64,000 nucleotides of DNA from Aulosira sp. ZfuVER01 (GTDB lineage: Bacteria > Cyanobacteriota > Cyanobacteriia > Cyanobacteriales > Nostocaceae): NCBI GenBank assembly GCA_034530615.2, contig JAVRCV020000052.1, forward strand, positions 96,001-160,000, written 5' to 3'. The translations under genes and the position numbers were made by a program. A model generated the notes under the pieces. It was given only the letters and a program-made list of their open reading frames with translations, was not told the origin of the DNA and ran no database searches. Shown here in pieces: positions 146-32,732 of this stretch. Each line of letters starts with the position of its first letter. Position 1 is the stretch's first letter.

Positions 146-801
146 AATTATGCGACTCCTAGGGTGTTTGAGAATTCTAGTAGCGCACTCCTGGTATGAG
201 GCAACGGAAATCTGCAAATCTCCGTGCAAAAAAAATATTCGCGATCGCTATAGATGCCTGGATAGTTGGTTTAAAGGCTAACAGCCCAATTTTTGAGCTA
301 AGTAAAGCCCTCACGCTGACGTTAAGTTGGTAAATTTTTGACAAACGATCTACGCTTGCTTGACAGGCGATTGTTTGGGTGAAATCGCTTGCTAAACCTG
401 AATTAGCTTACCATGCGTTTTTGTAACATCGGGTACAGCTATGCCACTTATAAAGCTGTCACAAGATATTGCTAATGAAAATACGAAAGGCATGGCTGTT
501 GTAATATGAGAATAAACAGAGAAAAGTAAAGTTGAGATGATAAATTAACTTTCTTTTCAATGTCATCAGAAGGTGTCGTAAATACTCACAAATTTCTCTG
601 TGTGTAATCGGAATTTATAACGTGCTGGTAATTTAGGTAGTATTTAACAGCCTACAGCAGGAGAAAACTTCCTAGAAAAAGTACCAGCTTTATCGAGTAG
701 CTATTACAGCTAGTAATAAAGCAAAGAGAGTAGATTCGGTAGCCTTCTGTATGTTCTACAGAATCAGCGATGCATCGCGCTCACCTGATGGAGGTGAAAT
801 T

Positions 802-1461
802 ATGTCTACAAAATTCCATACCCGCACGGAAGCTGGTAAGATGTTAGCCCGAGAACTGACAGCTTATACCGATTGCAAAGACTTGTTAGTTTTAGGTTTG
901 CCTCGTGGTGGTGTACCCGTCGCGTATGAAGTGGCAAAGTTACTCGGTGCAACCTTAGATATTTGTTTAGTGCGAAAACTCGGTGTACCTGGTCATAAAG
1001 AATTGGCAATGGGTGCAATCACGTCGGGAGGCATTCGTGTCTTAAATTACGATGTTATCAGTTCCTTGGGTATCACCAATCAGACGATTAACCAAGTAAC
1101 GGCGGATGAATTGCAGGAATTACAGCGTCGCGATCGCGTTTATCGTGGCGATCGCCCTCCATTAGATGTAAAAAATCGCACTGTAATTGTTGTAGATGAC
1201 GGTATTGCTACTGGCTCAACTATGCGTGCTGCCATTACTATGTTGCAACAGCAACAGCCTAAGCGTATCGTTGTTGCAGTTCCCATCGCACCGCCAGAAA
1301 CTTGTGAAGAATTAAGTAATCAGGTAGACGAAGTAGTGTGTCTAAAAATGCCAGAGCGAATGTATGCAGTAGGTGTCTGGTATGAAGACTTTTCGCAAAC
1401 TACTGATGAAGAGGTGCGTTATCTGCTTGGCAAACAGTCAGCTGTTAGCAGTCACAGTTGA
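802..1461 (+). CDS. Phosphoribosyltransferase family protein
   Basis: LGLPRGGVPVA and VIVVDDGIATG PRT motifs; GGAGG before ATG 802 favours this start over 751. Confidence 0.88.
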   Translation: MSTKFHTRTEAGKMLARELTAYTDCKDLLVLGLPRGGVPVAYEVAKLLGATLDICLVRKLGVPGHKELAMGAITSGGIRVLNYDVISSLGITNQTINQVTADELQELQRRDRVYRGDRPPLDVKNRTVIVVDDGIATGSTMRAAITMLQQQQPKRIVVAVPIAPPETCEELSNQVDEVVCLKMPERMYAVGVWYEDFSQTTDEEVRYLLGKQSAVSSHS

Positions 1462-1477
1462 GCATCCACAACGATCG

Positions 1478-2704
1478 CTACCTATTATCAGCAGCGCAGC
1501 GAAATCCTGTGAAAACCTGGCGCACGCTGGGATAATACCAGTTACGAAAACTTGGACGCAGTACCCAAGGACGAGTCGCCCAACTACCGCCTTTTAACAC
1601 GCGATGCTTTTGGTCAAAATAAACTTGCGAGTAACCTATATAAGGATAACTTTGAAACCCCTGATAGCCAGCAAACCAGGAAGCTGTCCACTCCCAGACA
1701 TTTCCTAGGGTGTCGTATAAACCATAAATACTTTGCCCGCCGGGATAAGCATCTACTGGTGTAGTTTTACCAATTAGGCGATCGCAATTACAATTCTCAA
1801 TTACTGCTTTTGCTTCTACATTCTGACTAGCCGCTTTTTCCCATTCGGCTTCTGTTGGTAGCCGCTTCCCGACAAACCTTGCGTATGCTTCAGCTTCGTA
1901 CCAACTAACACCACAAACTGGGTGATTATCCCAACTGAAATCATCTTGCCAATATAGCGGTTGTGTTACTTGCTCAGTTTGCAGCCAATTCCATCCAGCC
2001 TCTGACCAATAAGAAGAATCTTGATAACCACCTGCCTCCATAAATGCCCGATACTGCCTACAAGTAACTGGATATCTGTCAAGATAATAAGTATTTAAAT
2101 ATACTTTATATATGGGAGATTCATTATCTAGCGCATCAATAGAGTTACTACCCTGTGCAAATTCCCCGGCTGGGATTTCAATCATCTCTTCGAGATTGTC
2201 AGGTGCGGGTTGGTTTTCTCTGTCAGTGCGCAGTGACTTGTTATTCAATCGGGAAACTTTGACTAATTCCAACACCATGCTCATAATTTCGCAGTGTTGG
2301 CTTTCATGCTGAATTAAAAAGCGCCATAAACGTTCGTTTTGTTCAACATCAGCAACTTTCAGAGAATCTAGTACTTTGACTCTTACCGTATCCAAGTAAT
2401 AACGAATTTCCTCTAAATCGGGTAATTCCACACGCTTGGCTTTGGGTAAACCATCAGCCGCAAACAGCTGACGGTATTGAGGGAACAAACATGGTAAGCC
2501 TGCACTGCGTTCTAGTAGCCACAAAGATTCAGTGTAAGCAATATGTCCTAAGTGCCAGCCAACAGGACTAAAATCAGGATGCGGTTGAGCGCAAAAAGTC
2601 ATCCGATCCATACCCTCGAAGAGTGTCAGAGTTTTAGTCCGACATTCAACGAAAGCAAGAGTTATCGCCTCTCTCACACTAGATTTGCTCAAATTGGATA
2701 TCAC
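1478..2704 (-). CDS. egtB: Ergothioneine biosynthesis sulfoxide synthase EgtB (DinB_2 + FGE-sulfatase domains)
   Basis: SPVGWHLGH, QHESQH iron ligands, RLPTEAEWEKAA, GNVWEW; adjacent to egtC; start at GTG 2704 is inferred (ORF open to 2779). Confidence 0.85.
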   Translation of the reverse strand: MISNLSKSSVREAITLAFVECRTKTLTLFEGMDRMTFCAQPHPDFSPVGWHLGHIAYTESLWLLERSAGLPCLFPQYRQLFAADGLPKAKRVELPDLEEIRYYLDTVRVKVLDSLKVADVEQNERLWRFLIQHESQHCEIMSMVLELVKVSRLNNKSLRTDRENQPAPDNLEEMIEIPAGEFAQGSNSIDALDNESPIYKVYLNTYYLDRYPVTCRQYRAFMEAGGYQDSSYWSEAGWNWLQTEQVTQPLYWQDDFSWDNHPVCGVSWYEAEAYARFVGKRLPTEAEWEKAASQNVEAKAVIENCNCDRLIGKTTPVDAYPGGQSIYGLYDTLGNVWEWTASWFAGYQGFQSYPYIGYSQVYFDQKHRVLKGGSWATRPWVLRPSFRNWYYPSVRQVFTGFRCAADNR

Positions 2705-3467
2705 AGTCCACTCCCACACTGATGATGCTATTTTCTTGGACATCTGTCCAATTACCTGTAAATAGTGGTTCAGATGCAATAATTACTGCTCCGGGAAAAG
2801 TTGGATCGTCCCGCAACCAGTAAAGAGACGGAGCAGGCGATTTTGTACTAAAGCGACAAGCAATTAAGCGATCGCCATCACTAATTACCATATTGGCGGA
2901 AACATCAGCTTGATATTCTTCTGCCCATTCCCTCAACTGAAGTAATGTAATATGCAAAGCCTGCTCTACACTCTTACCAGGGTTAGCTTGTAAATGCTGG
3001 AGCAGTAAAGCAAAGATATGTTCCGAATCTGTACTTCCCTGAATGAATTGGTAAATTTCATCACTGAGTTGATTGCGAATCGGTCTGTATAGCGTCTGAC
3101 GGAACTTTTCAATCCGGCCATTGTGAGTAAACAACAAACGCTGATACTGAAATGGCTGAGAATTACTAAAATCTAAAGCTTGTCCTGGTGTAGCACTACG
3201 AACATAGGCTAATATTTGCCCCGATTCGACATAACGGCTGAGACTTGGCAGATTTTGGTCATTCCAAATCGGCAAGGTATTTTTGTAAATAAAGGGTTCG
3301 GTATCTTTTTGCGGATGATACCAACCCATACCAAAACCATCAGCGTTCACCACTCCCGAAAGCATTTCGCGAGGTTGATAACTCTGCACAATCAAGGAAT
3401 GTTCTGGTGTGTACAGTAGATGTTCTAAAGACACAGGTGAACCGAGGTAAGCAAGTAAACGGCACAT
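2679..3467 (-). CDS. egtC: Ergothioneine biosynthesis amidohydrolase EgtC (Ntn/GATase_4)
   Basis: N-terminal MCRLLAY nucleophile Cys, NADGFG, THNG, GSTDSE motifs. Confidence 0.9.
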   Translation of the reverse strand: MCRLLAYLGSPVSLEHLLYTPEHSLIVQSYQPREMLSGVVNADGFGMGWYHPQKDTEPFIYKNTLPIWNDQNLPSLSRYVESGQILAYVRSATPGQALDFSNSQPFQYQRLLFTHNGRIEKFRQTLYRPIRNQLSDEIYQFIQGSTDSEHIFALLLQHLQANPGKSVEQALHITLLQLREWAEEYQADVSANMVISDGDRLIACRFSTKSPAPSLYWLRDDPTFPGAVIIASEPLFTGNWTDVQENSIISVGVDCDIQFEQI

Positions 3468-3494
3468 AAATTAATTAGAATTTGGGATTGCTGA

Positions 3495-3989
3495 CTAGCT
3501 AGCAATAAACTTCAAAGCCACACCATTCATGCAATAGCGCTTACCAGTAGGTGCAGGGCCGTCGTTAAATACATGACCTAGGTGTCCACCACAACGATGA
3601 CAATGGACTTCAACTCTAGTCATAAAGAATGACTTGTCTACAGTTGTACCGATAGCTTCTTCCAGAGGTGCATAAAAACTCGGCCAGCCTGTACCACTGT
3701 TGAATTTAGTATCTGAAGAAAATAGAGGTAAATCGCATCCAGCACATACGTAAGTTCCCTGAGAATATTGCTTATCTAAAGGACTAGTACCAGCGCGTTC
3801 GGTGCCATGTTTACGCAGAACATGAAACTGTTCTGGTGTCAAGGTTTTGCGCCATTCTTCTTCAGTTTTGCTGATTTCAAATTCATTCTTTGCAGTTGCC
3901 ATAACTTCTGGTTTCCTTGTGAAATATTGTGATAAAAATGCTGTGCCAACTATGACTGCACTAGCTTCTAAAAGATACCGTCTGTTCAT
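3495..3989 (-). CDS. msrB: Peptide methionine-R-sulfoxide reductase MsrB with Tat-like N-terminal leader
   Basis: GTGWPSF, GHLGHVF, RYCMN, two CxxC; N-terminal NRRYLL followed by a hydrophobic stretch. Confidence 0.93.
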   Translation of the reverse strand: MNRRYLLEASAVIVGTAFLSQYFTRKPEVMATAKNEFEISKTEEEWRKTLTPEQFHVLRKHGTERAGTSPLDKQYSQGTYVCAGCDLPLFSSDTKFNSGTGWPSFYAPLEEAIGTTVDKSFFMTRVEVHCHRCGGHLGHVFNDGPAPTGKRYCMNGVALKFIAS

Positions 3990-4430
3990 TATCTAGTTGC
4001 CATTTACCTTGCTGATTCGCCATTATGAGCGATCGCTCTGAATTAGCCGTGATAGCAAGATTAAAATCATCTAAGAATCATTGAGATAGGTGCTATCAAC
4101 CGCTGATTGCAGGTCATCGGCTGCAAAATAGAATCGTTGAGCCGGAAAATAAATGCTGTTGTAGTCGCGGATAATTAATTCTGCTGGCAAATCCTCCTGG
4201 TTTCTGTTTAACGCTCTTTTTAAAGCTGTTACAAAACTACATTCACTCTAATAAATTATCGCTCCTGTAATCAAATCATTTGGGGTGGTGATTCCTGTAC
4301 CGCACTAGGTAGGGGTTTGGGTGAAGGGATTAGCAAACTGTCCGGTAAGTACGGTTGTCAGATTAATTGAGCGATTCTTCCTGAGGGGATGGGTCAGCAT
4401 TTGGAACAGATCGTCAAAGCAAATGGCAAG

Positions 4431-4485
4431 GAGTATATAGCTTGTTTGATGGGAGAGGTTAAAGATATATCGACCAATGATTTGG
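4431..4485 (+). pseudogene. Possible frameshifted 3' remnant of cas1
   Basis: Reads EYIACLMGEVK / (1-nt shift) IYRPMIW, which resembles my recollection of cyanobacterial type III (RT-)Cas1 C-termini; lies just upstream of the array leader. Confidence 0.45.
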
Positions 4486-4559
4486 CAACCTGAATCGAGA
4501 GATTGCATTATGTCGGTTGCTATGATACTGTTTATACCAACATCTGCACCTTAAAAATT

Positions 4560-4823
4560 TAATAAATACGTATTATTGACTGGTAGCCTAATGCTTAGTT
4601 TCCTCAAGCTATTTTGTTAAGAAATGTAAACTGAGGGGGTTGTCCAAAAGCCCAAAGGCTGATTGTTTCGTAGGCCCCCTCAGGTGGCTTATTGTATAAG
4701 GGTTTGAGTTACTTGGAGAATGTAGTTATTCTCAATAACTGCCGTCTGTTGACAAGTAAAATCTACCCCCCTCAGTTTTACAGGTCTGTAAGCCTTATTT
4801 GGTAAGCTTTCTGTAAGAGTAGG
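4560..4823 (+). promoter_or_regulatory. CRISPR leader of array 1
   Basis: Non-coding region abutting the first perfect repeat; contains inverted motifs AACTGAGGGGG (~4629) and CCCCCTCAGTT (~4766). Confidence 0.65.
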
Positions 4824-5728
4824 GTTTTAAATCTCTTACCCCTCACGGGGATGGAAACTACACCTTGTCTAACAGCTGTTATACAACCCTCTTCTGTTTT
4901 AAATCTCTTACCCCTCACGGGGATGGAAACGTTAGAACTTCCCGGTAATGTATGAGCGTAACATGTTTTAAATCTCTTACCCCTCACGGGGATGGAAACT
5001 GTACTTCATACCACCAATGTATACCATATTACCAAGTGTAGCGTTTTAAATCTCTTACCCCTCACGGGGATGGAAACTGTCGCGGCTCTTCCTTCATACC
5101 CTCGCAATGCATCCAGTTTTAAATCTCTTACCCCTCACGGGGATGGAAACTGCTCAACCGTCACATCTTTGCCGAAGATAGCTCTGGCAAATGTTTTAAA
5201 TCTCTTACCCCTCACGGGGATGGAAACAGATAATCTTGTAGATAATCATTTTCGATTAAGAGAGGTTTTAAATCATTCAGAAAGACAGGCCTTACTCACG
5301 CCTATAAAAATGATAATCATTTTCGATTAAGAGAGGTTTTAAATCTCTTACCCCTCACGGGGATGGAAACGCTTGGTCTCAGGTCGAGGATTAGGCTTGG
5401 TGTGATGAGTTTTAAATCTCTTACCCCTCACGGGGATGGAAACGTTACTAGGAGCTTGCAAATAGGCTTCGGCAATTTGTTTTAAATCTCTTACCCCTCA
5501 CGGGGATGGAAACGTCTTACAAAACTTGAGTATCTTTGCTTGAAATCTAGTTTTAAATCTCTTACCCCTCACGGGGATGGAAACTTAAAGCTAAAGGAGA
5601 ATCAGAACCAGAGGCCAAGCTTCCAGTTTTAAATCTCTTACCCCTCACGGGGATGGAAACCTTCCGACACGACCAGGAATGGACGCGGGAACTGTTTTAA
5701 ATCTCTTACCCCTCACGGGGATGTAAAA
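4824..5728 (+). CRISPR. CRISPR array 1: 12 repeats of 35 nt GTTTTAAATCTCTTACCCCTCACGGGGATGGAAAC
   Basis: Repeats start at 4824, 4896, 4965, 5043, 5116, 5193, 5336, 5409, 5479, 5550, 5626 and 5694 (last one degenerate); spacers 33-43 nt; one anomalous 108-nt interval at 5228-5335. Confidence 0.98.
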
Positions 5729-5838
5729 AGTTGAAAGTAGGTTGCGATCGCATTTGAAAAGTTGGCGTTGCATAAATGCGCGATCGCTCAATTATGTAAC
5801 CAAAGAATTATACTTTTTTGGTACATGAGGATTTTGAT

Positions 5839-6243
5839 ATGTCGCCCTGGACTAGTCTCATAACTGCTCTAACACTACTGCTGTACTTGGTCATCACCAT
5901 TAATGTTGGTCGAGCCAGAGCCAAATATAAAGTACTACCTCCCCAAATGACAGGAGATCCTGACTTTGAACGAGTGCTGCGCGTTCAGCAAAATACCCTA
6001 GAGCAAATAATTTTCTTCCTACCTGCTTTATGGTTATTTTCTTTTTACGTCAACCCGTTGTGGGGGGCGTTTATTGGTGCTATCTGGCTGCTGGGAAGAA
6101 TCGCCTACGCTTGGGGATATTATCAAGCGGCGGAAAAGCGGGCAGTTGGCTTTGGTATTAGTTCTATTAGCGGTATAGTGCTACTTTTAGGTTCTCTCGT
6201 TGGGATCATCTTGTCTCTGGTGCAGCCATTAAGTCATGCTTAG
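5839..6243 (+). CDS. MAPEG family membrane protein
   Basis: VGRARAKY, FERVLRVQQNTLE, GRIAYAWGY motifs; GAGG before ATG 5839. Confidence 0.88.
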   Translation: MSPWTSLITALTLLLYLVITINVGRARAKYKVLPPQMTGDPDFERVLRVQQNTLEQIIFFLPALWLFSFYVNPLWGAFIGAIWLLGRIAYAWGYYQAAEKRAVGFGISSISGIVLLLGSLVGIILSLVQPLSHA

Positions 6244-6376
6244 AAGCGATCGCTATTGTTATACCAATTCCCGAAAATCCTGATACAGATAGATTGTTCG
6301 TGAATTGCTATCAGCAGATGCTCCTCTAAATATTCAACTTTGCGTTGGGGCATCTCGTCTAGTCTCAATAAAGCTC

Positions 6377-6477
6377 ATACCATTTTGGATTTTGGATTTT
6401 AGATTTTGGATTGTAAAAGATTGATTGACCAAGCTTTTGGGCGCTCCATCTGTCGCAATCATTTTTCAAATTGGTAT
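6377..6477. repeat. MITE-like element containing TTTTGGA heptamers; related inverted copy at 9932-10015
   Basis: Ends ATACCATTTT...AAATTGGTAT; its reverse complement matches ATACCAATTTGAAAAATGATT at 9932. Confidence 0.6.
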
Positions 6478-6523
6478 CAGTTAATCTCCGACGGGATACT
6501 GGGAGCCACGAACAAGCCCACAC

Positions 6524-7681
6524 TCACTGCTTGCGGGAGTGTGGGAGTATCTCACGAATCGACCCTTCAATCCCCTCAACATACCAATCCATTTCTAGTT
6601 GTGCTTTATTATCCAGTATTTTACCCTTGGGTACTCGGACTACTCCCTTTTGGTCTTTTACTGGGCCATCGAAAGGATTGGCAGTACCTTGAATAAACTG
6701 TTCTCGTTTGGTGTTGACTAATTGCTGAACATCGCTAGGAATCACTGGATTCATCGGGGAAATATCTACCATCCCTTGAGCAATACCATGCCAAACAGCT
6801 TGTGACTTCCATGTGTTGTTAATAACAGCCAAAGCTGTATCTATATAAAATTTTCCCCATTTATTAATTGCTGATGTCAGGTGTGCTTGGGCACCAAACC
6901 TACTCATATCGGTATTGTAGCCGAAAGCATAAATACCTTTTTCTGCTGCCAGTTGAATAGCCGCCGCAGAGTTAGTATGTTGGGTTAGCACATCTGCACC
7001 TAAATTAATCAAAGCTTGGGCGGCTTCCCTTTCTTTGGCAGGATCGTACCAATTTTTTACCCACATCACCCTAACTTTGGCCTGAGGATTTGTTGTCCGC
7101 AGTCCTTGAGTAAATGCGTTGATACCGCGAATTACTTCTGGGATGGGATGTGATCCAATAAAACCAATGACATTAGATTTGGTCATCTTGCCTGCAATTA
7201 TGCCGGTTAAATAGTGCGGTTCTTCAAAGCGTCCTGAATAAGTACCGACATTGGCAGCAAGTGTGTATCCTGTACAATTTTCAAAAAAAACATTAGGAAA
7301 ATCTTTGGCAACTTTAATTGTGGGGTTTATGTAGTCAAAGGCAGTAGTAAAAATTAATTTATTCCCGTCTAATGCTAGTTGCCGAATCACCCTCTCAGCA
7401 TCAACACCTGCATTAACATTTTCCACAAAGGTAGTTTTTACCTTATCTTGGAGATTCGCTTCCATTTCTCTGCGACCTAAATCATGAGAGTAAGTCCAGC
7501 CAAAATCACCGACAGGCCCCGCATACACAAACCCCACTTTTAGCGGTTCGTTGACTACTACAGGGGAAGCTGTTGGCACTACTTCGCTTTGAGATTTGGG
7601 ATTTTTACCTTGAATACAACTATTCAAGGCAAAGCTAGATCCTGCTAAAGTCGCATACTTGAGAAAATTCCGACGATCCAT
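6524..7681 (-). CDS. BMP family ABC transporter substrate-binding lipoprotein (purine/nucleoside type)
   Basis: Tat motif DRRNFLK, lipobox-like LNSC, VGFVYAGPVGDFGWTYSH, WYVEGIEG. Confidence 0.88.
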   Translation of the reverse strand: MDRRNFLKYATLAGSSFALNSCIQGKNPKSQSEVVPTASPVVVNEPLKVGFVYAGPVGDFGWTYSHDLGRREMEANLQDKVKTTFVENVNAGVDAERVIRQLALDGNKLIFTTAFDYINPTIKVAKDFPNVFFENCTGYTLAANVGTYSGRFEEPHYLTGIIAGKMTKSNVIGFIGSHPIPEVIRGINAFTQGLRTTNPQAKVRVMWVKNWYDPAKEREAAQALINLGADVLTQHTNSAAAIQLAAEKGIYAFGYNTDMSRFGAQAHLTSAINKWGKFYIDTALAVINNTWKSQAVWHGIAQGMVDISPMNPVIPSDVQQLVNTKREQFIQGTANPFDGPVKDQKGVVRVPKGKILDNKAQLEMDWYVEGIEGSIREILPHSRKQ

Positions 7682-7955
7682 TGTTAAGCGATTTAAAATT
7701 CAACAACAGTCAAGAGGTATTTGATTACTGATAACGGTAGACTTAGCCTAGTACCGCTTTGCGGAATTTAATGATTTACTGATAATAGCAATTCTCTACT
7801 AGAGTAAGCGATCGCATCTTCATCTCTTAACTCTGAAGAATGGCTCTCTGCGCCGGAATTTCTAAAGAAAATCTAATGTAGCAAATTGTGCCAGCTACAA
7901 AACCGGATAATGCATTAGGATTTGTCAAACTATCAACCTTAAAGCATTTATACCT

Positions 7956-8534
7956 ATGACATATACACCGAAAATTCTGGCCTTTGCTGGCAGTACTCGC
8001 GTAGATTCTTACAACAAAAAATTGGCTAAAATTGCCGCGAATGGTGCTAGGTCAGCAGGTGCGGAAGTCACTTATTTAGATCTGCGCGATTTACCCATGC
8101 CTCTTTTCGATGAGGATCTCGAAAAGCAACAAGGACAACCTGAAAACGCAGGTAAATTTAAAGAATTGTTACTTTCGCATCAAGGGTTCTTGATTGCTTC
8201 GCCTGAATATAACAGTTCAATTTCCGCAGTTTTGAAAAATGCGATCGATTGGGCATCTCGTCCCGCGCCAAACGAACCGCCTCTAGCAGCTTTTACAGGC
8301 AAAGTGGCTGCGCTGATGAGTGCTTCCCCTGGCGCACTAGGTGGTTTGCGGGGATTGGTTCATCTGCGCAGTATTTTAGGAAACATCAGAGTTTTAGTGC
8401 TTCCCGATCAAATAGCTGTCTCCAAAGCTTACGAAGCTTTCAATGCTGACGATTCATTAAAAGATGAAAAGCAACAGCAATCTATTGAAAAACTGGGTGA
8501 AAGTTTAGCCACAATTTTAGCAAAGCTTAACTAA
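7956..8534 (+). CDS. NADPH-dependent FMN reductase (ChrR/SsuE-like)
   Basis: AFAGSTR, SPEYNSS, LKNAIDW, SPGALGG motifs. Confidence 0.9.
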   Translation: MTYTPKILAFAGSTRVDSYNKKLAKIAANGARSAGAEVTYLDLRDLPMPLFDEDLEKQQGQPENAGKFKELLLSHQGFLIASPEYNSSISAVLKNAIDWASRPAPNEPPLAAFTGKVAALMSASPGALGGLRGLVHLRSILGNIRVLVLPDQIAVSKAYEAFNADDSLKDEKQQQSIEKLGESLATILAKLN

Positions 8535-8539
8535 ACTTT

Positions 8540-8911
8540 TCAGCGATTAATTAAATAGCGAGCACCTAGGAGTAGCAAAAAGATACCATACAATTTTTTC
8601 ATGGTCTCGCTGCTAATAAACGGCTGATTTGCAAACAATGCTCCAAATAAATTACCCACTACTAAACCAACTGCAATAATCACAGCATATTTGATATTCA
8701 GCTGACCATTGCGATAGTAAACTGCGGCTCCTAAAATCCCAATTGGTAATATTTGTGCAGCAATGGAAGTACCTGTGGCAAACTTCTGATCTAGACCCAT
8801 AAGTAAGACCATTGCTGGCACCATTATTGCTCCGCCACCAATACCAAACATTCCGCCAGCGACACCAGCAACTAAACCAATTAGTAACAGTTGAACGAGA
8901 ATATTAGACAT
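8540..8911 (-). CDS. TauE/SafE sulfite exporter family protein (short form)
   Basis: GGMFGIGGGAIMVP motif, hydrophobic helices. Confidence 0.82.
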   Translation of the reverse strand: MSNILVQLLLIGLVAGVAGGMFGIGGGAIMVPAMVLLMGLDQKFATGTSIAAQILPIGILGAAVYYRNGQLNIKYAVIIAVGLVVGNLFGALFANQPFISSETMKKLYGIFLLLLGARYLINR

Positions 8912-8917
8912 AAGAAG

Positions 8918-9883
8918 TTACAAACTAATTGTCCCAGACAAAATTGATTTAGGCAGCATACCATGAACTCCTTTTTGGGGACTGTTCACAACTTGGGTAA
9001 TCCGAAAATTTACTGCTAAACTACACAGCACATAAGCATCTTCTGGCGATAAATGTGTGAAGCGTTCTAGAAAATCAATCATATTTTTTAAGGCTTTTTC
9101 TAAGGCTTCATCTAAGGTTTTACCAAAGCCCATAGTTATGATATCGGTAGGAGTTTCAGCGATTGGTGTTGTTAAATGTAAATCTTTACGAACCTTCAGT
9201 TTAATTGAACCGTTCATAGAAGTTTCAATAGCAGTGACATTCACTTCACCATCTCCTTGTGCTGCATGACCATCACCAACAGAAAATAATGCACCGGGAA
9301 TAAAAATCGGCAAAAATAAGCGAGAACCTGCTTGTAATTCTCGGTTATCAATATTACCCCCATAACTACCAGGAGGAATAGAAGTGCGAGATAGTTCTGG
9401 AGTAGCAACACCAAGGATACCAAAAAATGGTTTGAGGGGAATTTTGATGCCAGTACCTTGAGGAAATTCAGCAATCTTGTTTTCTAAATCGAGGGGAATA
9501 AATCTTAAGGCTGGTTGATGAAATCTTTCTGGTAAAGCTCCCCAACCTGCACGAATTGCATTGAAACCTACAGGTAAACTTGGTGCGATCGCTTTTAATT
9601 GTACTTCCAAAACATCTGCTGGTTCCGCACCCCGCACATAAATTGGCCCTGTTAGCAAATGCGGCCCCCCGGCAATTTTACGTTCTGAGGATAAATTTTG
9701 GCAGATATCCAGAAATTCTGGGTTAACAAACTCAGGTGGTGCTTTATCGTACACATAATAACCACTGTAAGTTTCTACCTCAACGGTGTCACCAGAATCA
9801 ACAGTTAACACAGGTGATAGCAAGTGCGAAAAACCACCGAGATGAACTGTTTCTTTGGTTGCTTTTAAAATGTGATGGGTCAT
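8918..9883 (-). CDS. Acetamidase/formamidase family protein
   Basis: HLLTGPIYV, GGNIDN, GDGHAAQGDGEV motifs. Confidence 0.9.
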   Translation of the reverse strand: MTHHILKATKETVHLGGFSHLLSPVLTVDSGDTVEVETYSGYYVYDKAPPEFVNPEFLDICQNLSSERKIAGGPHLLTGPIYVRGAEPADVLEVQLKAIAPSLPVGFNAIRAGWGALPERFHQPALRFIPLDLENKIAEFPQGTGIKIPLKPFFGILGVATPELSRTSIPPGSYGGNIDNRELQAGSRLFLPIFIPGALFSVGDGHAAQGDGEVNVTAIETSMNGSIKLKVRKDLHLTTPIAETPTDIITMGFGKTLDEALEKALKNMIDFLERFTHLSPEDAYVLCSLAVNFRITQVVNSPQKGVHGMLPKSILSGTISL

Positions 9884-10040
9884 CTGAGCATCATTCTGAT
9901 TTAGCAGTATTAGTGCAATTTAATATACTTAATACCAATTTGAAAAATGATTATGTCAGATGAATTCACACCAAGCCAGACCAAGAGAGTGATTCCCAAC
10001 CCCAAATCTAAAATAGGAATTGTGATTGGCTCAAATGAAT

Positions 10041-10657
10041 CTTTCAATCCCCTTGCGGGGTAATAGTTAGTGGAAACCTAAATTTATATAAATTAAGTCT
10101 AAATCTTCGTTTCAATCCCCTTGCGGGGTAATAGTTAGTGGAAACTCACTAATATCTATTGCCATACGTTTTAAATATGTCCAGTTTCAATCCCCTTGCG
10201 GGGTAATAGTTAGTGGAAACAACTCTTTCTTAGTTTATGTAGTTTCTAATCACAGAAGTTTCAATCCCCTTGCGGGGTAATAGTTAGTGGAAACTTTCCA
10301 GGGTGGAAGCCCACAAACCCTAGAAGGGAGTTTCAATCCCCTTGCGGGGTAATAGTTAGTGGAAACTGCACTAGCAGCAGTGAACCCAGATGCTTTAAGT
10401 TTCAATCCCCTTGCGGGGTAATAGTTAGTGGAAACTTGGTTGGGTCTCCACCCAGAGCCAATTGATTCTAGGAGTTTCAATCCCCTTGCGGGGTAATAGT
10501 TAGTGGAAACTGCCACCGAAGTAGCGAAGTAAAGGAGGATTCACTAGTTTCAATCCCCTTGCGGGGTAATAGTTAGTGGAAACCGCTGCTTATCGTCAGC
10601 TAAACCTACAGATTGCAAACGTTTCAATCCCCTTGCGGGGTAATAGTTAGTGGAAAC
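10041..10657 (-). CRISPR. CRISPR array 2: 9 repeats of 37 nt GTTTCCACTAACTATTACCCCGCAAGGGGATTGAAAC (minus strand), 8 spacers of 31-38 nt
   Basis: Repeats start at 10041 (one mismatch, taken as trailer end), 10109, 10184, 10258, 10330, 10399, 10474, 10547 and 10621. Confidence 0.98.
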
Positions 10658-10900
10658 ACCTCGGTGCTGAAACTCTTACAGAGTAAGTTTCCTGGGAAGG
10701 GTTTTGACGGGTCGAAAAAAAAGGTCATTTTCAGCCGCTCTTATTGCAAATAATTTGCATCTTCCCGAATTGTTGAAACGCTGTAATTATTAACTTGTCA
10801 AGGTTCTGGCGATTTTGGCAGATCCCCTAGGGTTTTTGCCCTCGCTTCGACTTGCCAAACGTCAAGTTGTTAGATTCATCATAAAACTACTTTCAGATCT
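10658..10900 (-). promoter_or_regulatory. CRISPR leader of array 2
   Basis: Non-coding region next to the perfect terminal repeat; shares ACTCTTACAGA near the repeat with the array 1 leader. Confidence 0.6.
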
Positions 10901-10974
10901 TGTCGAGCTTTGATTAAAAATTAGGTGATGGCTTCAATCTTACCTATAAAAGCCGACCTCGAAGTAAGTGGTTT

Positions 10975-11022
10975 GCGATCGCCTGACTCTCTCCCTGGTA
11001 TTTATAGAGTAAGCGCAATCGC
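10975..11022. repeat. 48-bp direct repeat, copy 1 (HIP1-bounded)
   Basis: 42/48 identical to 11561-11608. Confidence 0.85.
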
Positions 11023-11061
11023 ATGAACATCACAAGCGTTAAACGTTTTTAGCAAGCGCGA

Positions 11062-11280
11062 TTAGGCAGCTTGATTAACAGTTGGCTCCGGAAGAGGTTC
11101 ATTTGTGGCTTCATAAGCCATAATTAAAGACTCTAAAGCTTCAATACCGTTTGCCGCAGCCTCCTCATAAGTATCGCCATGAGTCCGCCAACGTTGTCCA
11201 GGAAAATCAGGAAATCCAACCAGAAAGCAGCTGTCTTCTTCAGACCATTGAATTAACATTTGATACTTAAATTTACTCAT
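11062..11280 (-). CDS. hicB: HicB family antitoxin
   Basis: IQWSEED..VGFPDFPG..THGDTYEEA pattern; follows hicA. Confidence 0.88.
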   Translation of the reverse strand: MSKFKYQMLIQWSEEDSCFLVGFPDFPGQRWRTHGDTYEEAAANGIEALESLIMAYEATNEPLPEPTVNQAA

Positions 11281-11500
11281 CTTCCTGCTTGTCCTGCTGT
11301 CGTTTCTCCTCTACCTCTTTTATAGCTTGTTGCACATCCTTTTCTTGGTAGGGTTTAGCGTCAGAACTATCTTTGCCTGAAACTGTTAGCTTTCCAGCAT
11401 ATAAGGGATGTATCCAGTTAGTGTGGCTTCCTTTTCCTGGGAGTTCAGTAAAGCCTACTTGACGTAGCCATTGTTTTAACTCTCTGATTTTCTTGGGCAT
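11273..11500 (-). CDS. hicA: HicA family toxin (mRNA interferase)
   Basis: MPKKIRELK..GF..GKGSH motif. Confidence 0.88.
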   Translation of the reverse strand: MPKKIRELKQWLRQVGFTELPGKGSHTNWIHPLYAGKLTVSGKDSSDAKPYQEKDVQQAIKEVEEKRQQDKQEDE

Positions 11501-11560
11501 TATCAGACGTTGACTATTAACCACAGCATATTAATTTCAATCTCACCCGTATCGAGTCAG

Positions 11561-11608
11561 GCGATCGCCTCACACTCTCTCTGATATTTATAGAGTAAGA
11601 GCGATCGC
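11561..11608. repeat. 48-bp direct repeat, copy 2 (HIP1 at both ends)
   Basis: GCGATCGCCT...TATTTATAGAGTAAGAGCGATCGC. Confidence 0.85.
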
Positions 11609-11742
11609 TCACATCTACCCAGTCAATGCACAACGGGGGAGTAGAGGAGAATTTGCTGGATAATTATACTTTTTAGTCGATGCTTAAAGAAATATAAAAT
11701 TTAATTGCGGTATTGTAAAAGAGGCTTTTCATTAAATGAATT

Positions 11743-14010
11743 ATGAGCCAGTCAGAAGACAACGCTGTCCAAACTGCTTCTTTGACTAACCACGATCGCA
11801 AACCAATTCACATCCCTGGCTCAATCCAACCTCATGGTGTATTGCTGGTTCTTAGTCCTCAGCTAGAGATACTGCAAGTTAGCGATAATACCCTGGACTA
11901 CTTAAGCAAAACTACCCAAGAATTACTTGGACAACCTCTAAATATCTTGCTAGACCAGCAACAAGTTGCAGCTATTAAACAATGCTGGTCAAAAAAAATT
12001 GGTAGTCTATCTTATTACAAAGTATCAATAAATACTTTTAATGGAAAACAATACTTCGACTGTATTGCCCATCGTATAGAAGATGTTGTCATTCTGGAAC
12101 TAGAATTGATTGACTCTACATCTGAGGTGAGTTTCTTAAGTTTCCATGCTTTGGTCAATGAAGCGATCGCCCAAATGCAAAAGACATCGAACCTGACAGA
12201 ATTTTTGCATCTAGCGGCAACAGAAATCCGAGAAATCACAGATTTTGACCGAGTCATGGTCTATCAATTCGATCGTAACGCAGCAGGTTCCGTCATTGCT
12301 GAAGCCAAACGAGAGGATTTACCAACATATTTAGGGTTACATTATCCTGCTACAGATATTCCAGCGTCAGCCAGAGATTTATACACACGTTGTTTACTGC
12401 GATTTATCCCTAATTTAACTGCTAAACCAGTTAAGCTAGTTCCCACTGAAAACCCCATTACACATCAACCTCTCGATTTAAGCCTATCTGTACTTAGAAG
12501 TGTTGATTCATGCTGTCTTGAATATCACCACAATATGGGTGTGGCGTCACTTTTGGTAATCTCGCTGATTCAAGAACAGCAGCTTTGGGGTTTAATTTCC
12601 TGCCATCATCACACACCTAAGCATATTTCCCACGAAATCCGTCAAATCTGCGAGTTTTTGGGACGGATTGTATCTTCAGAGTTAACGCACAAAGTTAATC
12701 AATTGGAATTAGATTATAAAGTCAAACTTAAATCTCTACAGTCTGAGTTTATTGAGTCTATTTCCCAAGCAGATAATTTTATCGATGCTCTAATTAAACC
12801 AGAACTCCGCTTATTAGATGTTGTTAGTGCCTCTGGAGCAGCAGTTTGTTTAGATAATGAAATCACACTTGTAGGTGCAACACCCAATGTTGAGCAAGTT
12901 CGGACTCTAATGGAATGGGCAGATACTCAAGTCAAAGAAAATCTGTTTTCCACCGATTCTCTACCGCAGCTTTACCCTGATAGCACTGCCTTTAAAGATA
13001 CTGCTAGTGGCTTATTACTACTGCGAATTTCTCAAGTCCGACGCTATTACATTCTCTGGTTTCGTCCTGAAGTTATCCAAACGGTCAATTGGGCAGGTAA
13101 TCCCAATGAAGCTGTTGTTCAAATTGAAAAAGCAGATGGCACTATTACTTTGGGGCCGCGAAAATCCTTTGCCAAATGGCAAGAAACGGTACAATTAACT
13201 TCTTTACCGTGGAAACAATGTGAACTTGATAGTGCGATCGCTCTCAGGAATGCCATCGTTGGTATTGTACTTTCTAAAGCAGATGAGTTAGCCAAAATTA
13301 ACCTAGAGTTAGAACGCAGCAACCGCGAACTAGCCTCTTTTGCCTATGCGGCTTCCCACGATCTCAAGGAACCTTTGCGAGGTATATATAATTACTCAAC
13401 AATTATCTTAGAAGATTACGGTCAAATTCTCGATGATGACGGTATTGAGTGCTTAGAGACAGTAGTGACTTTATCAGTGCGCATGGAAACTCTGATTAAT
13501 GCGCTGCTGCGACTCGCCCAGTTAGGAAAAGCACAACTGCGTAAGCAAGCCACTGATCTCAACGAATTGCTCAACCAGTTACTTGATGTCTTTCATGCTA
13601 GTCGTCAAGATTCTGAGCTTTTGGATATTCGCATTCCTCAACCTTTGCCAACAATTCAATGTGATGCAGTTCTGGTTAACGAAGTCTTTAGTAACCTGAT
13701 TGCTAATGGGCTGAAATACAACGATAAAGCCGAGCAATGGGTTGAGATTGGCTATTTAGATCCCTCTGAGCAGCAGCAAACTTTAGCCGCCCCTCTGTTT
13801 TATGTCCGAGATAACGGTATTGGGATTCCAGAACATCATCGCGAAACTATCTTTCGACTGTTTAAGCGACTTCACTCCCAGGAAAAATACGGCGGAGGAG
13901 TAGGTGCGGGGCTAGCTATTGTTAAGAAGATTGTCGAACTTCATAACGGTCAGATTTGGGTTGAATCTACTGTAGGCATTGGCTCGACGTTCTATTTTTC
14001 CCTGGAATAG
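11743..14010 (+). CDS. PAS-GAF-PHY phytochrome histidine kinase, tandem-cysteine type
   Basis: PIHIPGSIQPHG, YPATDIP, LRSVDSCC, PRKSF tongue, SHDLKEPL H-box, HATPase boxes. Confidence 0.92.
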   Translation: MSQSEDNAVQTASLTNHDRKPIHIPGSIQPHGVLLVLSPQLEILQVSDNTLDYLSKTTQELLGQPLNILLDQQQVAAIKQCWSKKIGSLSYYKVSINTFNGKQYFDCIAHRIEDVVILELELIDSTSEVSFLSFHALVNEAIAQMQKTSNLTEFLHLAATEIREITDFDRVMVYQFDRNAAGSVIAEAKREDLPTYLGLHYPATDIPASARDLYTRCLLRFIPNLTAKPVKLVPTENPITHQPLDLSLSVLRSVDSCCLEYHHNMGVASLLVISLIQEQQLWGLISCHHHTPKHISHEIRQICEFLGRIVSSELTHKVNQLELDYKVKLKSLQSEFIESISQADNFIDALIKPELRLLDVVSASGAAVCLDNEITLVGATPNVEQVRTLMEWADTQVKENLFSTDSLPQLYPDSTAFKDTASGLLLLRISQVRRYYILWFRPEVIQTVNWAGNPNEAVVQIEKADGTITLGPRKSFAKWQETVQLTSLPWKQCELDSAIALRNAIVGIVLSKADELAKINLELERSNRELASFAYAASHDLKEPLRGIYNYSTIILEDYGQILDDDGIECLETVVTLSVRMETLINALLRLAQLGKAQLRKQATDLNELLNQLLDVFHASRQDSELLDIRIPQPLPTIQCDAVLVNEVFSNLIANGLKYNDKAEQWVEIGYLDPSEQQQTLAAPLFYVRDNGIGIPEHHRETIFRLFKRLHSQEKYGGGVGAGLAIVKKIVELHNGQIWVESTVGIGSTFYFSLE

Positions 14011-14063
14011 TTTAAGATAAGTAACAAAAATCTTTTAATTATTACATTTTGTTAAGACAACTA

Positions 14064-14513
14064 ATGACCACGAAACTTCATGAACCTCTACTAGTTGTTG
14101 AGGACAGCAATGAAGATTTTAGGATGCTGCAACGCCTGATGCGACGCATGGCTGTCCAGAACCCTATATATCGCTGTACCAATGGGGACGAGGTTTTAGA
14201 TTTGCTCTATAAAGAGAGCAGCAATGAAAATTCTAGTGCAGTGCTGCGACCCTCTGTGATTCTGCTCGACCTCAATTTACCAGGGATTGACGGTCGTGAT
14301 ATCCTAGAGCGCCTCAAGCAAGATATAACTTATAGAGACATCCCTATTGTTGTTTTCACCACATCATCCAACCCTAGGGATATTGAATTGTGTTACCAAA
14401 AAGGTGCAAATGGCTATCTCGTCAAGCCTATGGATGCGCAAGGATTGCGAAAGACGATTCAGGCATTTGTAGACTATTGGTTGGAAACTAACACTCCACC
14501 AGTGTCACGTTAA
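14064..14513 (+). CDS. Rcp1-like single-domain response regulator
   Basis: LVVEDS, LLDLNLP, FTTS, YLVKP; directly follows the phytochrome. Confidence 0.9.
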   Translation: MTTKLHEPLLVVEDSNEDFRMLQRLMRRMAVQNPIYRCTNGDEVLDLLYKESSNENSSAVLRPSVILLDLNLPGIDGRDILERLKQDITYRDIPIVVFTTSSNPRDIELCYQKGANGYLVKPMDAQGLRKTIQAFVDYWLETNTPPVSR

Positions 14514-14954
14514 TTTGTGTATTTCTGGTTGATGAGGTAGCTAGAAGCAGAAAAGGACGCGGAGCGCGGTACAGCAGCAGACTGTATTCGTCTGTTGGTG
14601 CTGGGATTTGATATCCAGACTGCATAGAGGCTCTGAGTGAGTCTGTATGAGAGACACTCTGTTCAACCGGGGAAACCTCCATAAGCAAGTGTCCTCCCCT
14701 GTGTCTTCGCGATCGCTTCGTTCTCCGCATCAGGCTGTTTCCCCCTCTCTCTGCTGATTTCTCAGAATTACCACCAATTCCTTGCTGACGACTTAGTACT
14801 TACGTAGTGTTCTTGGCACGGTAGTCGCTTGCTTTAAGTTTTTTCACTAAACTTTAGATTTTATTTATATTTATTTTAGATTATTTTTAGAATTATGCAA
14901 GAGATTGCAACCTAGAGCAAAAAATCTCTATATTCCCCAGATCCTCATACTTTT

Positions 14955-16619
14955 ATGGTGGACACATGGACGCTACTGATCGTGGATGATTGTGCAGCGG
15001 ATCGAAAAATTTATCGTCGGTATCTTTTACAAGATCCTTACCAGTCCTACCAAATTTTGGAGGCAGACTGTGCAGAGGGCGGACTAGCCTTGTGTAAAAA
15101 AAATCATTGCGATGTCATTCTGTTAGATTTCTGCCTACCTGACATGAGTGGCTTGGAACTCTTTGATCGGCTGGAGAAAGAAATATTTGATACACCACCG
15201 ACTGTGATTATGCTGACTGGGCGGGGTGATGAAGAGGTTGCCGTGCAGGCAATGAAACGGGGTGCCCAAGATTATTTAGTCAAGCAATATCTGAAACCAG
15301 ATGTACTGCAACTAGCTGTTCGCAATGCCATCAAACAATCGTGCTTGCAAGCCCAGCTGTGTAAAAATCGAGAACGACAGCGCTTAATTGCTACGACAGC
15401 GTTACGAATTCGTCAATCTCTCGATTTGGAGCAAATTTTAAATACGGCGGTGGTGGAGGTACAACAGCTTCTCAAGTGCGATCGCGTCTTGGTGTATCAG
15501 TTTGCCCCAGAGAATGGCGGTAAGACTGTAGCCTCCTCCGTTGAGTCATGGGAGACTGTACTACCAAACCATAATATCCAAGATATCTGTCATGAGGTGG
15601 GGGGCGAAAACCATTATTGGGGATGTAAATTAGCCATTTCTCAAGTTTATGAAGCTGATTTGAGTCATAGTTACTTCAATCTATTAGAACAATTTAAGAC
15701 CAAGGAAAATTTAGTAGTTCCCATTCATTTGAGTAATAATGGCAAACTAGAAGATCCGCTTTGGGGCTTGTTGATTGCTCACCACAGTTCAGGAGAACGA
15801 GAGTGGCAAGCGGATGAAGTAGAAATACTCAATGAATTGTCAGTACAACTAGCGATCGCTATTCAACAGGCTGAATTGTTGGCGCAAACGCAAGCAGCGC
15901 TTGTCAAAGAAAAGCAACTCAATGCATTTAAATCCCAAATAGTAGCCACAGTTTCCCATGAGTATCGCACACCGTTAACTTCCATCTTGGCTGCTGCATC
16001 AACTGTGATTAAATATGGCAGGCAATTGGATGAATCTAAACAACAAAGGTTGTTGGGAATTATTGAGCAAAAAGCCAGGTCAATGTCTAAACTTGTGGAT
16101 GATATGCTGATGGTTAACCAAATTGAACTCGACAAAACCGGGTTTAAGCCCATCCCACTCGATCTGCTGCAATTTTTCTCCGATCTCATCGAACAAGCAC
16201 GAGAGACATTGACAGAGCAACATGAATTAATTTTTAACACCAGTGGAAATCACAAAGACTTCTGGGGCGATCGCGGGCTTTTGCAGCAAATATTTGTGAA
16301 TTTAATTTCTAATGCTATTAAGTATTCTCCTCATGGAGGTAGTGTAGAGGTTTACCTGATTGGCACAGAATCAGCGGTGATGTTTTACATTAAAGATGAG
16401 GGGATTGGCATACCAACAGCAGATCAAGAAAACTTATTCCAATCCTTCAGTCGTGGAAGTAACGTTGGTACAATTCCCGGGACAGGTTTAGGGTTAGCGA
16501 TCGCTAAATCTTGTGTAGAGTTACATGGAGGCAATATTACTTTGTCCAGTCAAATGGGGCAAGGAACTAAAGTGACAGTCAGCTTACCGAAGCAACCTCC
16601 TTTAAATATTTATAAATAA
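14955..16619 (+). CDS. Hybrid REC-GAF-histidine kinase
   Basis: N-terminal receiver, GAF (DRVLVYQF, LWGLLIAH), SHEYRTPL, NAIKYS, GTGLGL. Confidence 0.9.
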   Translation: MVDTWTLLIVDDCAADRKIYRRYLLQDPYQSYQILEADCAEGGLALCKKNHCDVILLDFCLPDMSGLELFDRLEKEIFDTPPTVIMLTGRGDEEVAVQAMKRGAQDYLVKQYLKPDVLQLAVRNAIKQSCLQAQLCKNRERQRLIATTALRIRQSLDLEQILNTAVVEVQQLLKCDRVLVYQFAPENGGKTVASSVESWETVLPNHNIQDICHEVGGENHYWGCKLAISQVYEADLSHSYFNLLEQFKTKENLVVPIHLSNNGKLEDPLWGLLIAHHSSGEREWQADEVEILNELSVQLAIAIQQAELLAQTQAALVKEKQLNAFKSQIVATVSHEYRTPLTSILAAASTVIKYGRQLDESKQQRLLGIIEQKARSMSKLVDDMLMVNQIELDKTGFKPIPLDLLQFFSDLIEQARETLTEQHELIFNTSGNHKDFWGDRGLLQQIFVNLISNAIKYSPHGGSVEVYLIGTESAVMFYIKDEGIGIPTADQENLFQSFSRGSNVGTIPGTGLGLAIAKSCVELHGGNITLSSQMGQGTKVTVSLPKQPPLNIYK

Positions 16620-16655
16620 CTTTCTTAGTCAGGACTTTAGTCCTAGCCTTGAGGA

Positions 16656-17465
16656 TTATTCAATTGCTCCTTGTTGAGCAACAACTCCCACTGTGGCGTG
16701 ATAGATAGCCCAAGTACTTGGATCGTCAGCAAATTGACAATACTGCTCAATATCATGATCAGTTGCTTGACCAGTTGCAATGTATTTCTCTACAAGTTGT
16801 ATAGCAGACATTTTCATCACTGTTGCGATCCCAAAACCACCATTGGCTAGAGGTGTATCATTCTCTACAGATAAATTTTGTAATCCTAGCCTTTGCAAGA
16901 TAGCAGGTAACTTTACCCCCAGAGCGTAATCTAGTCCTTTATTTGTAAACATCCGCAGAATAGCTTGATTGACTCTATTCACAGACTGGAGTGTTTCTGA
17001 ATTACCCACAATAGCCCTCGCCGCCGCAAAATCAGGTTCCTCAAGTACAATCCATCCACCTGGTTTTAGCAGACTCAGCATTTGGGACAAAGCAACTCGA
17101 AAATCGGGTATATGAATCAGAACAAAACGCGCATGAATCAGGTCAAAAGATTGATTCTCCAGCGCGAGATGGCGAATATCTTCTTTTAATACTTCAACAT
17201 TAGATGGCAGTGGATCTTTTAAAAACTGAGTATCTAGATCTACAGCAACAACACTACCATTTTTGCCTACTATATCTGCCATCCATCGCATAATTGAGCC
17301 AGCCCCAGCTCCTACTTCCAGACATCGCCAATCGGTTGTCAAACCTGTTGCTAAAATTCGTCGTCGGCTGGCTGGATCAAATACTGTTTCAATTGTTTGC
17401 AGTCTTTCAATCTCTCTGAGATGTTGGGAATTAGCAAAAACGTAGCTAGACTCTGTCAAACTCAT
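16656..17465 (-). CDS. Class I SAM-dependent methyltransferase
   Basis: LEVGAGAG, FDLIHARF, LKPGGW motifs. Confidence 0.87.
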   Translation of the reverse strand: MSLTESSYVFANSQHLREIERLQTIETVFDPASRRRILATGLTTDWRCLEVGAGAGSIMRWMADIVGKNGSVVAVDLDTQFLKDPLPSNVEVLKEDIRHLALENQSFDLIHARFVLIHIPDFRVALSQMLSLLKPGGWIVLEEPDFAAARAIVGNSETLQSVNRVNQAILRMFTNKGLDYALGVKLPAILQRLGLQNLSVENDTPLANGGFGIATVMKMSAIQLVEKYIATGQATDHDIEQYCQFADDPSTWAIYHATVGVVAQQGAIE

Positions 17466-17709
17466 ATTACTTTATTCCTTTTTCAACATACCCTTAGCAA
17501 TTTTAAGATTCAGGGGACTAATGGTAAATAGGTTGGAAAAATACCTTATATGCTGTAATATTTTAGACTTTCAGTACTTTTTTAACATATAGATTCTAGA
17601 TGAGCCTAAGCGAACATACGCTTATATGGATGTGTTAGTTGCACAAATGGACGAAAAAGCATCTCGTGCGCCTAACACACCTCCTTTAATTGAATGTTTT
17701 ACTCAATTT

Positions 17710-32399: not shown

Positions 32400-32732
32400 T
32401 CAATCCAACCTACTCATCTGCTCATTAATGGAGTTCAAAGGCTCATTAACGGAGTAAAAAGCCTCATTAACGGAGCAAAAAGCCTCGTTCACGGAGCTAA
32501 AAGCCTCATTAACGGAGCTAAAAGCCTCATTCACGGAGTAAAAAGCCTCGTTCACGGAGTAAAAAGCCTCATTAATGGAGCTAAAAGCTTCATTAACGGA
32601 GTAAAAAGCCTCATTAACGGAGCTAAAAGCCTCGTTCACGGAGTAAAAAGCCTCATTAATGGAGCTAAAAGCCTCGTTCACGGAGTAAAAAGCCTCATTA
32701 ATGGAGCTAAAAGCCTCATTAACGAATATCAA
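32400..32732 (-). CDS. Putative heptad-repeat (F-x-S-V/I-N-E-A)n protein
   Basis: Frame open through the repeat; several repeat variants are synonymous in this frame; weak TTG start. Confidence 0.4.
   Translation of the reverse strand: MIFVNEAFSSINEAFYSVNEAFSSINEAFYSVNEAFSSVNEAFYSVNEAFSSINEAFYSVNEAFYSVNEAFSSVNEAFSSVNEAFCSVNEAFYSVNEPLNSINEQMSRLD
32421..32724. repeat. 21-bp tandem repeat, 14 full units plus a partial unit
   Basis: Consensus CTCATTAACGGAGTAAAAAGC with variant units. Confidence 0.95.

Follow-up and report, generated by a model that had tools for sequence, protein, structure and literature searches.

CRISPR array 1 of the cyanobacterium Aulosira sp. ZfuVER01 carries, between its sixth and seventh repeats, a structure that was probably left by an off-register full-site integration, i.e., by a Cas1-Cas2-type integrase that inserted a 37-nt foreign fragment into the array at the wrong place. 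The two staggered attacks, whose usual targets are the opposite ends of one repeat, would in this case have hit spacer 6 and the point after position 10 of repeat 7, and the repair of the gap would have duplicated the 34 bp lying between the cuts, in the way in which the 35-bp repeat is normally duplicated. Such an integration at a mis-registered, non-leader site had been proposed in the original prediction, and the present analysis supports it: the insert has the length of a spacer, is unique, lacks terminal inverted repeats and is flanked on both sides by a 34-nt duplication, approximately the length of the repeat, in a genome that itself encodes intact Cas1 integrases. Events of this kind are known, but to our knowledge none had been described for this lineage and type of system, where the present case occurred naturally.

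The window, i.e., the whole 64,000-nt stretch of DNA that was analysed, corresponds to positions 96001-160000 of contig C52 in a draft genome of 8.03 Mb and 83 contigs. Array 1 has the attributes of a CRISPR array, with near-identical and regularly spaced direct repeats, unique spacers, a leader and a degenerate far end (Table 1). Eleven of its 12 repeats are identical, the terminal one (5694-5728) differing at two positions, and all 12 exceed the gathering score of the Rfam model CRISPR-DR37, which is written on the strand opposite to the direction assigned here to the array. Across 13 arrays of this repeat family, from this genome and from its relatives, the 110 nt that precede the first repeat are conserved, and the leader together with the first repeat is 87-91% identical in four other species; it is this conserved leader upstream, together with the degenerate repeat at the right end, that led the direction to be taken as forward. 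The array is an orphan, in a sense that no cas genes were found among the 14 ORFs scanned around it (window 751-18462) and none of the four Cas1 matches of the genome lies on its contig. A second orphan array, with eight copies of a different 37-nt repeat (GTTTCAATCCCCTTGCGGGGTAATAGTTAGTGGAAAC), is found at 10109-10657, 4.4 kb away from array 1 and separated from it by ordinary metabolic genes; its repeat family also occurs on contigs C3 and C28.

Table 1. Coordinates, in the window, of array 1, its leader and the elements of the interval between repeats 6 and 7.
Feature	Position	Strand	Remark
CRISPR array 1, 12 repeats of 35 nt (GTTTTAAATCTCTTACCCCTCACGGGGATGGAAAC)	4824-5728	+	Orphan; Rfam CRISPR-DR37
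Leader of array 1	4714-4823	+	Ends in ...GTAGG, abutting the first repeat
Repeat 6, intact	5193-5227	+	Would supply the 5' handle of the spacer-6 crRNA
Spacer 6, complete, 37 nt, 27% GC	5228-5264	+	
34-nt target-site duplication, copy 1	5241-5274	+	26% GC; joins positions 14-37 of spacer 6 to positions 1-10 of the repeat
Repeat stump, first 10 nt of the repeat (GTTTTAAATC)	5265-5274	+	Near-palindrome, without the hairpin
37-nt insert	5275-5311	+	Read as a mis-integrated spacer
34-nt duplication, copy 2	5312-5345	+	Runs into intact repeat 7, whose first 10 nt it includes
Repeat 7, intact	5336-5370	+	

The periods of array 1 range from 68 to 78 nt, the sole exception being the 143 nt that lead from repeat 6 to repeat 7. 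The 108-nt interval between these two repeats consists, in this order, of spacer 6 (37 nt), the repeat stump (10 nt), the insert (37 nt) and a second copy of the last 24 nt of spacer 6 (5312-5335). The direct duplication of 34 nt, made up of 24 nt of spacer 6 and 10 nt of the repeat, was reproduced exactly as originally described, and a repeat search of the window recovered its two copies at 100% identity, abutting both ends of the insert; a third apparent copy at 7411 reaches only 65% and was discarded as noise. An exact duplication of 24 nt of a spacer is beyond chance. The duplication is one base shorter than the repeat (34 vs 35 nt) and, added to the insert, amounts to 71 nt, a length that falls within the range of periods of the array. 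The 10-nt stump received no repeat call from Rfam. An in-register ectopic acquisition was also considered for this interval and rejected, given that the insert is preceded by the 10-nt stump only and followed by 24 nt of spacer 6 before the next repeat.

A scan of the genome for CRISPR arrays found 12 of them, and the length of the insert coincides with both the mode and the median of the 139 spacers that the arrays of this genome contain (27 of the 139 measure 37 nt, within a range of 31-46). Its uniqueness, which had been claimed from the window, was confirmed there (one occurrence when up to 3 mismatches are allowed, against an expectation of 0 from 100 shuffles) and extends to the 8.03-Mb genome, where it is single-copy under the same tolerance and has no partial relatives of at least 18 nt at 85% identity or more (blastn-short). 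The insert is likewise absent, at up to 3 mismatches, from the 400 other genomes of the order that were searched. Regarding its source, no credible match was obtained in phages, the best one being 27 nt at 85% in a Sulfolobus virus (E = 6), there was no match in plasmids, and no exact match was found in viral, metagenome and genome contigs. The original prediction would have been contradicted by a donor genome in which the insert and the duplicated sequence were contiguous or by the insert belonging to a known MITE; none of the searches above gave such a donor, and a sequence with one copy in the genome is not a multi-copy element. The missing donor weighs less as counter-evidence, since none of the 11 regular spacers of array 1 matched phages, plasmids or the own genome either, and the array as a whole only retrieved, from phages and plasmids, chance matches (E near 1) or arrays of similar repeats on Nostoc and Calothrix plasmids. 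Spacers of RT-linked arrays have been reported to be nearly all untraceable, according to the relevant part of PMC5513706. As for the state that preceded the insertion, the 34-mer formed by spacer 6 and the repeat stump is absent from the metagenome contigs searched, no strain sharing spacer 6 was found, no spacer 14-mer is common to array 1 and the related loci compared, and no ancestral allele free of the insert was seen in a collection that holds one genome per species. With no sister strain of that kind found, the integration event is something that we infer from its product.

The original prediction was to be checked against raw reads, and read-derived contigs do back both junctions of the insert, in three public runs (X1, X2 and X3, labelled root metagenome) that contain the locus and that may be the very sample from which the genome was assembled. 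In each run, a Logan contig of 101 nt covers positions 5245-5345 with 0 differences, and both junctions are thereby covered, as it joins the insert to the duplicated sequence on either side. Its depth is 245, 191 and 857 in X1, X2 and X3, as compared with 175-204, 128-148 and 786-834 for the flanking contigs (i.e., 0.9-1.5 times the flank depth), so the insert is present approximately once per genome copy, bearing in mind that contigs built on 31-mers cannot reveal a minority allele without it. The flanking contigs are identical to the assembly except for one letter in one X3 contig. Misassembly of the duplication and the insert is thus unlikely. The specific artefact to be feared is a cycle bounded by the duplication that is absent from the chromosome and that the assembler, working on short reads, followed once: the genome is in draft form, the 34 nt of the duplication exceed a 31-mer and hence form a cycle in the k-mer graph, and no single listed contig spans the whole interval (5228-5370). 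Against it stand the link that the 101-nt contig establishes between the insert and both sides of the duplication, in three runs and at about the depth of the flanks, and the fact that the insert has one set of neighbours in the genome, which makes the assembled path the only one that uses it. We consider an artefact of this sort highly improbable.

Taking the structure as real DNA, it might have arisen without any integrase through a two-step rearrangement, in which the unit of spacer 6 and its repeat was duplicated in tandem and 38 nt of the product, namely repeat positions 11-35 and the 13 nt with which the second copy of spacer 6 begins, then gave way to 37 unrelated nt in a repair patch or a gene conversion. 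Recombinational duplications of spacers are reported to be common, affecting 26.4% of array families in the section of bioRxiv 10.1101/2022.05.19.492656 that deals with them, the 108 nt of the interval equal a spacer, a repeat and a spacer (37+35+36), and the CTTA...CTCACG of the insert resembles the CTTACCCCTCACG of the repeat. That resemblance is, however, non-significant (best local alignment p = 0.12 in 5000 shuffles; 21 of the 139 real spacers score as high), for which reason the idea that the insert is a decayed repeat was rejected. The rearrangement also needs two events, the second of them with no known mechanism for a clean replacement of spacer length, it requires the middle to have diverged completely while the flanking 34 nt remained 100% identical, and the genome offers no template for the 37 nt; it is an unlikely origin. 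Quite improbable, too, is an insertion by something other than Cas1-Cas2, be it a very small mobile element, a MITE remnant or templated filler at the repair of a staggered break. Mobile elements do enter arrays of this repeat family, as exemplified by an element of ~125 nt in the locus of a relative (L014), but the insert of array 1 has no terminal inverted repeats (the end positions match at 3 of 6 and 6 of 10), is single-copy and has no counterpart in the other genomes of the order mentioned above. Transposases usually generate target duplications of 2-14 bp, and the 34 bp observed here are far above that size and equal to the repeat-length stagger of Cas1-Cas2. The absence of terminal inverted repeats, the single copy and the size of the duplication led to the rejection of a MITE or an insertion sequence as the identity of the insert.

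Events of the same kind as the off-register integration preferred here have mainly been seen in the laboratory. Nivala, Shipman and Church reportedly described in 2018 that non-canonical integration by the E. coli type I-E system gives rise to "neo-CRISPR" units. As in that case, Cas1-Cas2 would have placed a spacer in vivo outside its proper site, with non-repeat DNA of repeat length duplicated on both sides; unlike it, which concerned overexpression, a type I-E laboratory system and mostly chromosomal sites outside arrays, the present one belongs to a wild cyanobacterium, a type III family and the interior of an array. The closest experimental parallel is provided by the in vitro activity of a Cas6-RT-Cas1-Cas2 system, for which the assay reported by Wang et al. 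(2021, PMC8102632) gives 14 full-site events out of 25 insertion events, each duplicating the adjacent 35 bp, 12 of the 14 at the leader-repeat junction and hence 2 of the 14 off-target. Judging from that part of the paper, both systems duplicate the adjacent sequence whatever its letters, have a 35-bp repeat and are linked to a type III RT-Cas1, whereas the former was assayed on plasmids, using a protein purified from a different bacterium and having a Cas6 domain in the fusion, and ours is a natural chromosomal fossil whose enzyme is deduced, with a duplication of 34 instead of 35 bp that lies inside the array and straddles spacer and repeat.

New spacers in the middle of an array, away from the leader end, are also known from ectopic acquisition in the CRISPR1 and CRISPR3 arrays of S. 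thermophilus (Achigar et al. 2021, PMC7999890) and in leader-anchor mutants (McGinn and Marraffini 2016, as related in PMC8047081 and bioRxiv 10.1101/2022.05.19.492656). In the portions of these works that describe them, such events keep the register, duplicate an entire repeat and yield a functional unit; in array 1, in contrast, the register is off by 24-25 nt, what was duplicated is a hybrid of spacer and repeat, and no processing site is expected for the new spacer. Regarding the missing base, in the experiments of Wang et al. (2016, PMC4872114) on the type I-B system of Haloarcula hispanica that treat the ruler anchor, the size of the duplication was off by 1-3 bp when that anchor was shifted. 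A second cut set by distance and not by sequence would be common to both cases and fits 34 vs 35, although the repeat mutants of H. hispanica, as presented there, were engineered and integration started at the leader-repeat junction, whereas both cuts are displaced here. Finally, a type III-A Cas1-Cas2 has been reported to be promiscuous without HU, in the passage of PMC13769266 devoted to it. In a limited search of full-text literature, no paper was seen that describes an off-register scar of natural origin within an array.

Since array 1 has no cas genes of its own, the enzyme would have acted in trans. The repeat closest to that of array 1 (GTTTTCAAATCATTACCCCTCACGGGGATGGAAAC) belongs to an array on contig C22 (C22:36101-37226); the two repeats differ at a few positions, and the leaders of the two arrays are alike. 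Directly upstream of the C22 array lies an RT-Cas1 gene whose 673-aa product matches both RVT_1 and Cas1 over their full length, and within 16 kb of it on the same contig there are a separate Cas1, Cas2, Cas10, Csm2, RAMP proteins, Csx3 and CARF/WYL proteins, so that the cas genes beside this array assign the repeat family of array 1 to a type III system with RT-Cas1. Either the RT-Cas1 or the Cas1 + Cas2 pair of the type III locus on C22 probably acted on array 1 in trans, these being the candidates that the kinship of the repeats and leaders singles out from the four Cas1 of the genome. The RT-Cas1 gene (L030 15732-17753, i.e., G000:C22:33731-35752) has no adjoining cas2, the nearest one encoding a Cas2 of 93 aa (L030 11325-11606) that sits with the second, RT-less Cas1, and three arrays with nearly the same repeat surround these two adaptation genes of C22. 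In its portion on RT-Cas1 fusions, PMC5513706 describes a branch of them that is specific to cyanobacteria.

The position of the two cuts can be read from the ends of the duplication. On the top strand, the attacked phosphodiester is 5240|5241, inside spacer 6 and 5' of GATAATCATT, and on the bottom strand it is the one opposite 5274|5275, 5' of GATTTAAAAC and past the tenth position of repeat 7. The first three bases (+1 to +3) are GAT on both attacked strands, and the canonical sites start with G as well (GTTTTAAATC on the top strand and GTTTCCATCC on the bottom one). The bottom-strand half-site shares 8 of 10 positions with the canonical GTTTTAAATC: given that positions 1-10 of the repeat are nearly palindromic, this cut is the exact mirror of the one normally made on the leader side. 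In spacer 6, the half-site of the top strand agrees with the canonical one at no more than 4 of 10 positions. When the 1920 site-strands of the leader and array 1 were scored after removing the 71 nt in silico, 12 of them reached 10/10, which are the canonical sites, and 14 reached 8/10, of which 12 are the mirror site, present once per repeat. Being found in all 12 repeats, the mirror site alone gives no reason for the choice of repeat 7.

What, then, distinguishes repeat 7 from the others? Among the 11 regular spacers, the one that precedes it is the poorest in GC (27%, the remaining ten spanning 31-61%), and its inverted match to the repeat, 7 nt long (TAAGAGA vs TCTCTTA), exceeds those of all the others (3-5 nt). 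These features constitute weak evidence because they were noticed after the fact. Off-target sites of the E. coli Cas1-Cas2 favour AT-rich DNA beside palindromes. With the 71 nt removed, positions 5257-5279 form an imperfect inverted repeat (TAAGAGA, 9 nt including TTTAAA, and TCTCTTA), which is the strongest among the 11 spacer-repeat junctions, and in the predicted RNA fold the end of spacer 6 is drawn in a matching pairing with repeat 6. A different proposal, according to which the 3' end of spacer 6 mimics the end of the leader through a common TAAGAG, was rejected, as those positions are variable among the 13 related leaders; the only bases conserved next to the repeat are ...TAGG (11 of the 13 leaders), and spacer 6 lacks TAGG.

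Concerning the order and orientation of the attacks, the complex might have docked backwards after recognising the wrong strand of repeat 7 at its palindromic 5' end; a ruler of about repeat length would then have set the second cut upstream, in the AT-rich spacer 6, and the distance of 34 rather than 35 could reflect a preference for G at +1. We put forward only tentatively, and as the less probable state of affairs, the set of ideas that this entails: that the integrase docked backwards on repeat 7, that half-site recognition is confined to ~10 bp at the 5' end of the repeat, with orientation and register imposed by something else (the leader or a host DNA-bending protein), that an AT-rich spacer 6 with its 7-nt inverted match made repeat 7 the favoured wrong target, and that the 34-nt hybrid duplication amounts to a nested "neo-repeat". 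The mirror-site reading is a new idea of this analysis, which we infer from the letters at the cuts and which may explain them. Were it true, the 34-nt hybrid "neo-repeat" would represent raw material for a new repeat variant, and spacer 6 plus repeat 7 would make a simple target for integration assays.

At the RNA level, the predicted fold preserves the CCCC/GGGG hairpins of both repeat 6 and repeat 7, and no site of crRNA processing is expected at the stump, since its 10 nt lack that hairpin. In type III systems, Cas6 cuts within full repeats, leaving an 8-nt 5' handle, and the effector complex trims the 3' end of the crRNA. On these grounds, the interval should yield a long intermediate but a normal mature crRNA with spacer 6, and the inserted spacer, devoid of a 5' handle, is probably silent. 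The abnormally long crRNA that had been announced for the interval would thus be right for the intermediate and wrong for the mature molecule, whose 3' end would be trimmed. With the spacer-6 crRNA still normal and the new spacer silent, the scar would be neutral and could persist, which suggests that type III arrays can tolerate such scars, 3' trimming still giving the working crRNA of the older spacer.

Among the 275 distinct spacer-repeat units of this repeat family that were compared, from the own genome and from related loci, only the one studied here carries such a scar. A genome-wide scan for comparable footprints outside arrays (exact duplications of 28-42 nt around 28-50 nt) found no other, its 15 isolated candidates being all short-period tandem repeats, and without a second scar there is no independent sign of a sloppy integrase in this genome. 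Off-target or off-register CRISPR integration is known mainly from test-tube and overexpression experiments, and scars of natural origin reveal that wild genomes undergo it too, as well as what the enzyme measures. In array 1, a stagger of approximately repeat length was retained, and sequence recognition would have been reduced to a short palindromic half-site. The matching arrays lie beside an RT-Cas1 fusion in a cyanobacterium, a group whose integration rules have been little studied.

Two other odd units appear among the 275, namely one long gap before a terminal repeat and one repeat split by a MITE-like element. The latter is the last repeat of an array in a related species (L014 ~2055-2195; G002:C1, near 7555200), interrupted after its 15th base by an element of ~125 nt that, in contrast to the scar of array 1, has terminal inverted repeats (GGGACTTCC...GGAAGTCCC / GGGACTTCCAA...TTGGAAGTCCC). 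Elsewhere in the window, tandem repeats at 34784-36407 (12.9 copies of a 126-nt unit) and 32421-32724 (14.5 copies of a 21/42-nt unit) look in-frame and are probably genes encoding repeat proteins.
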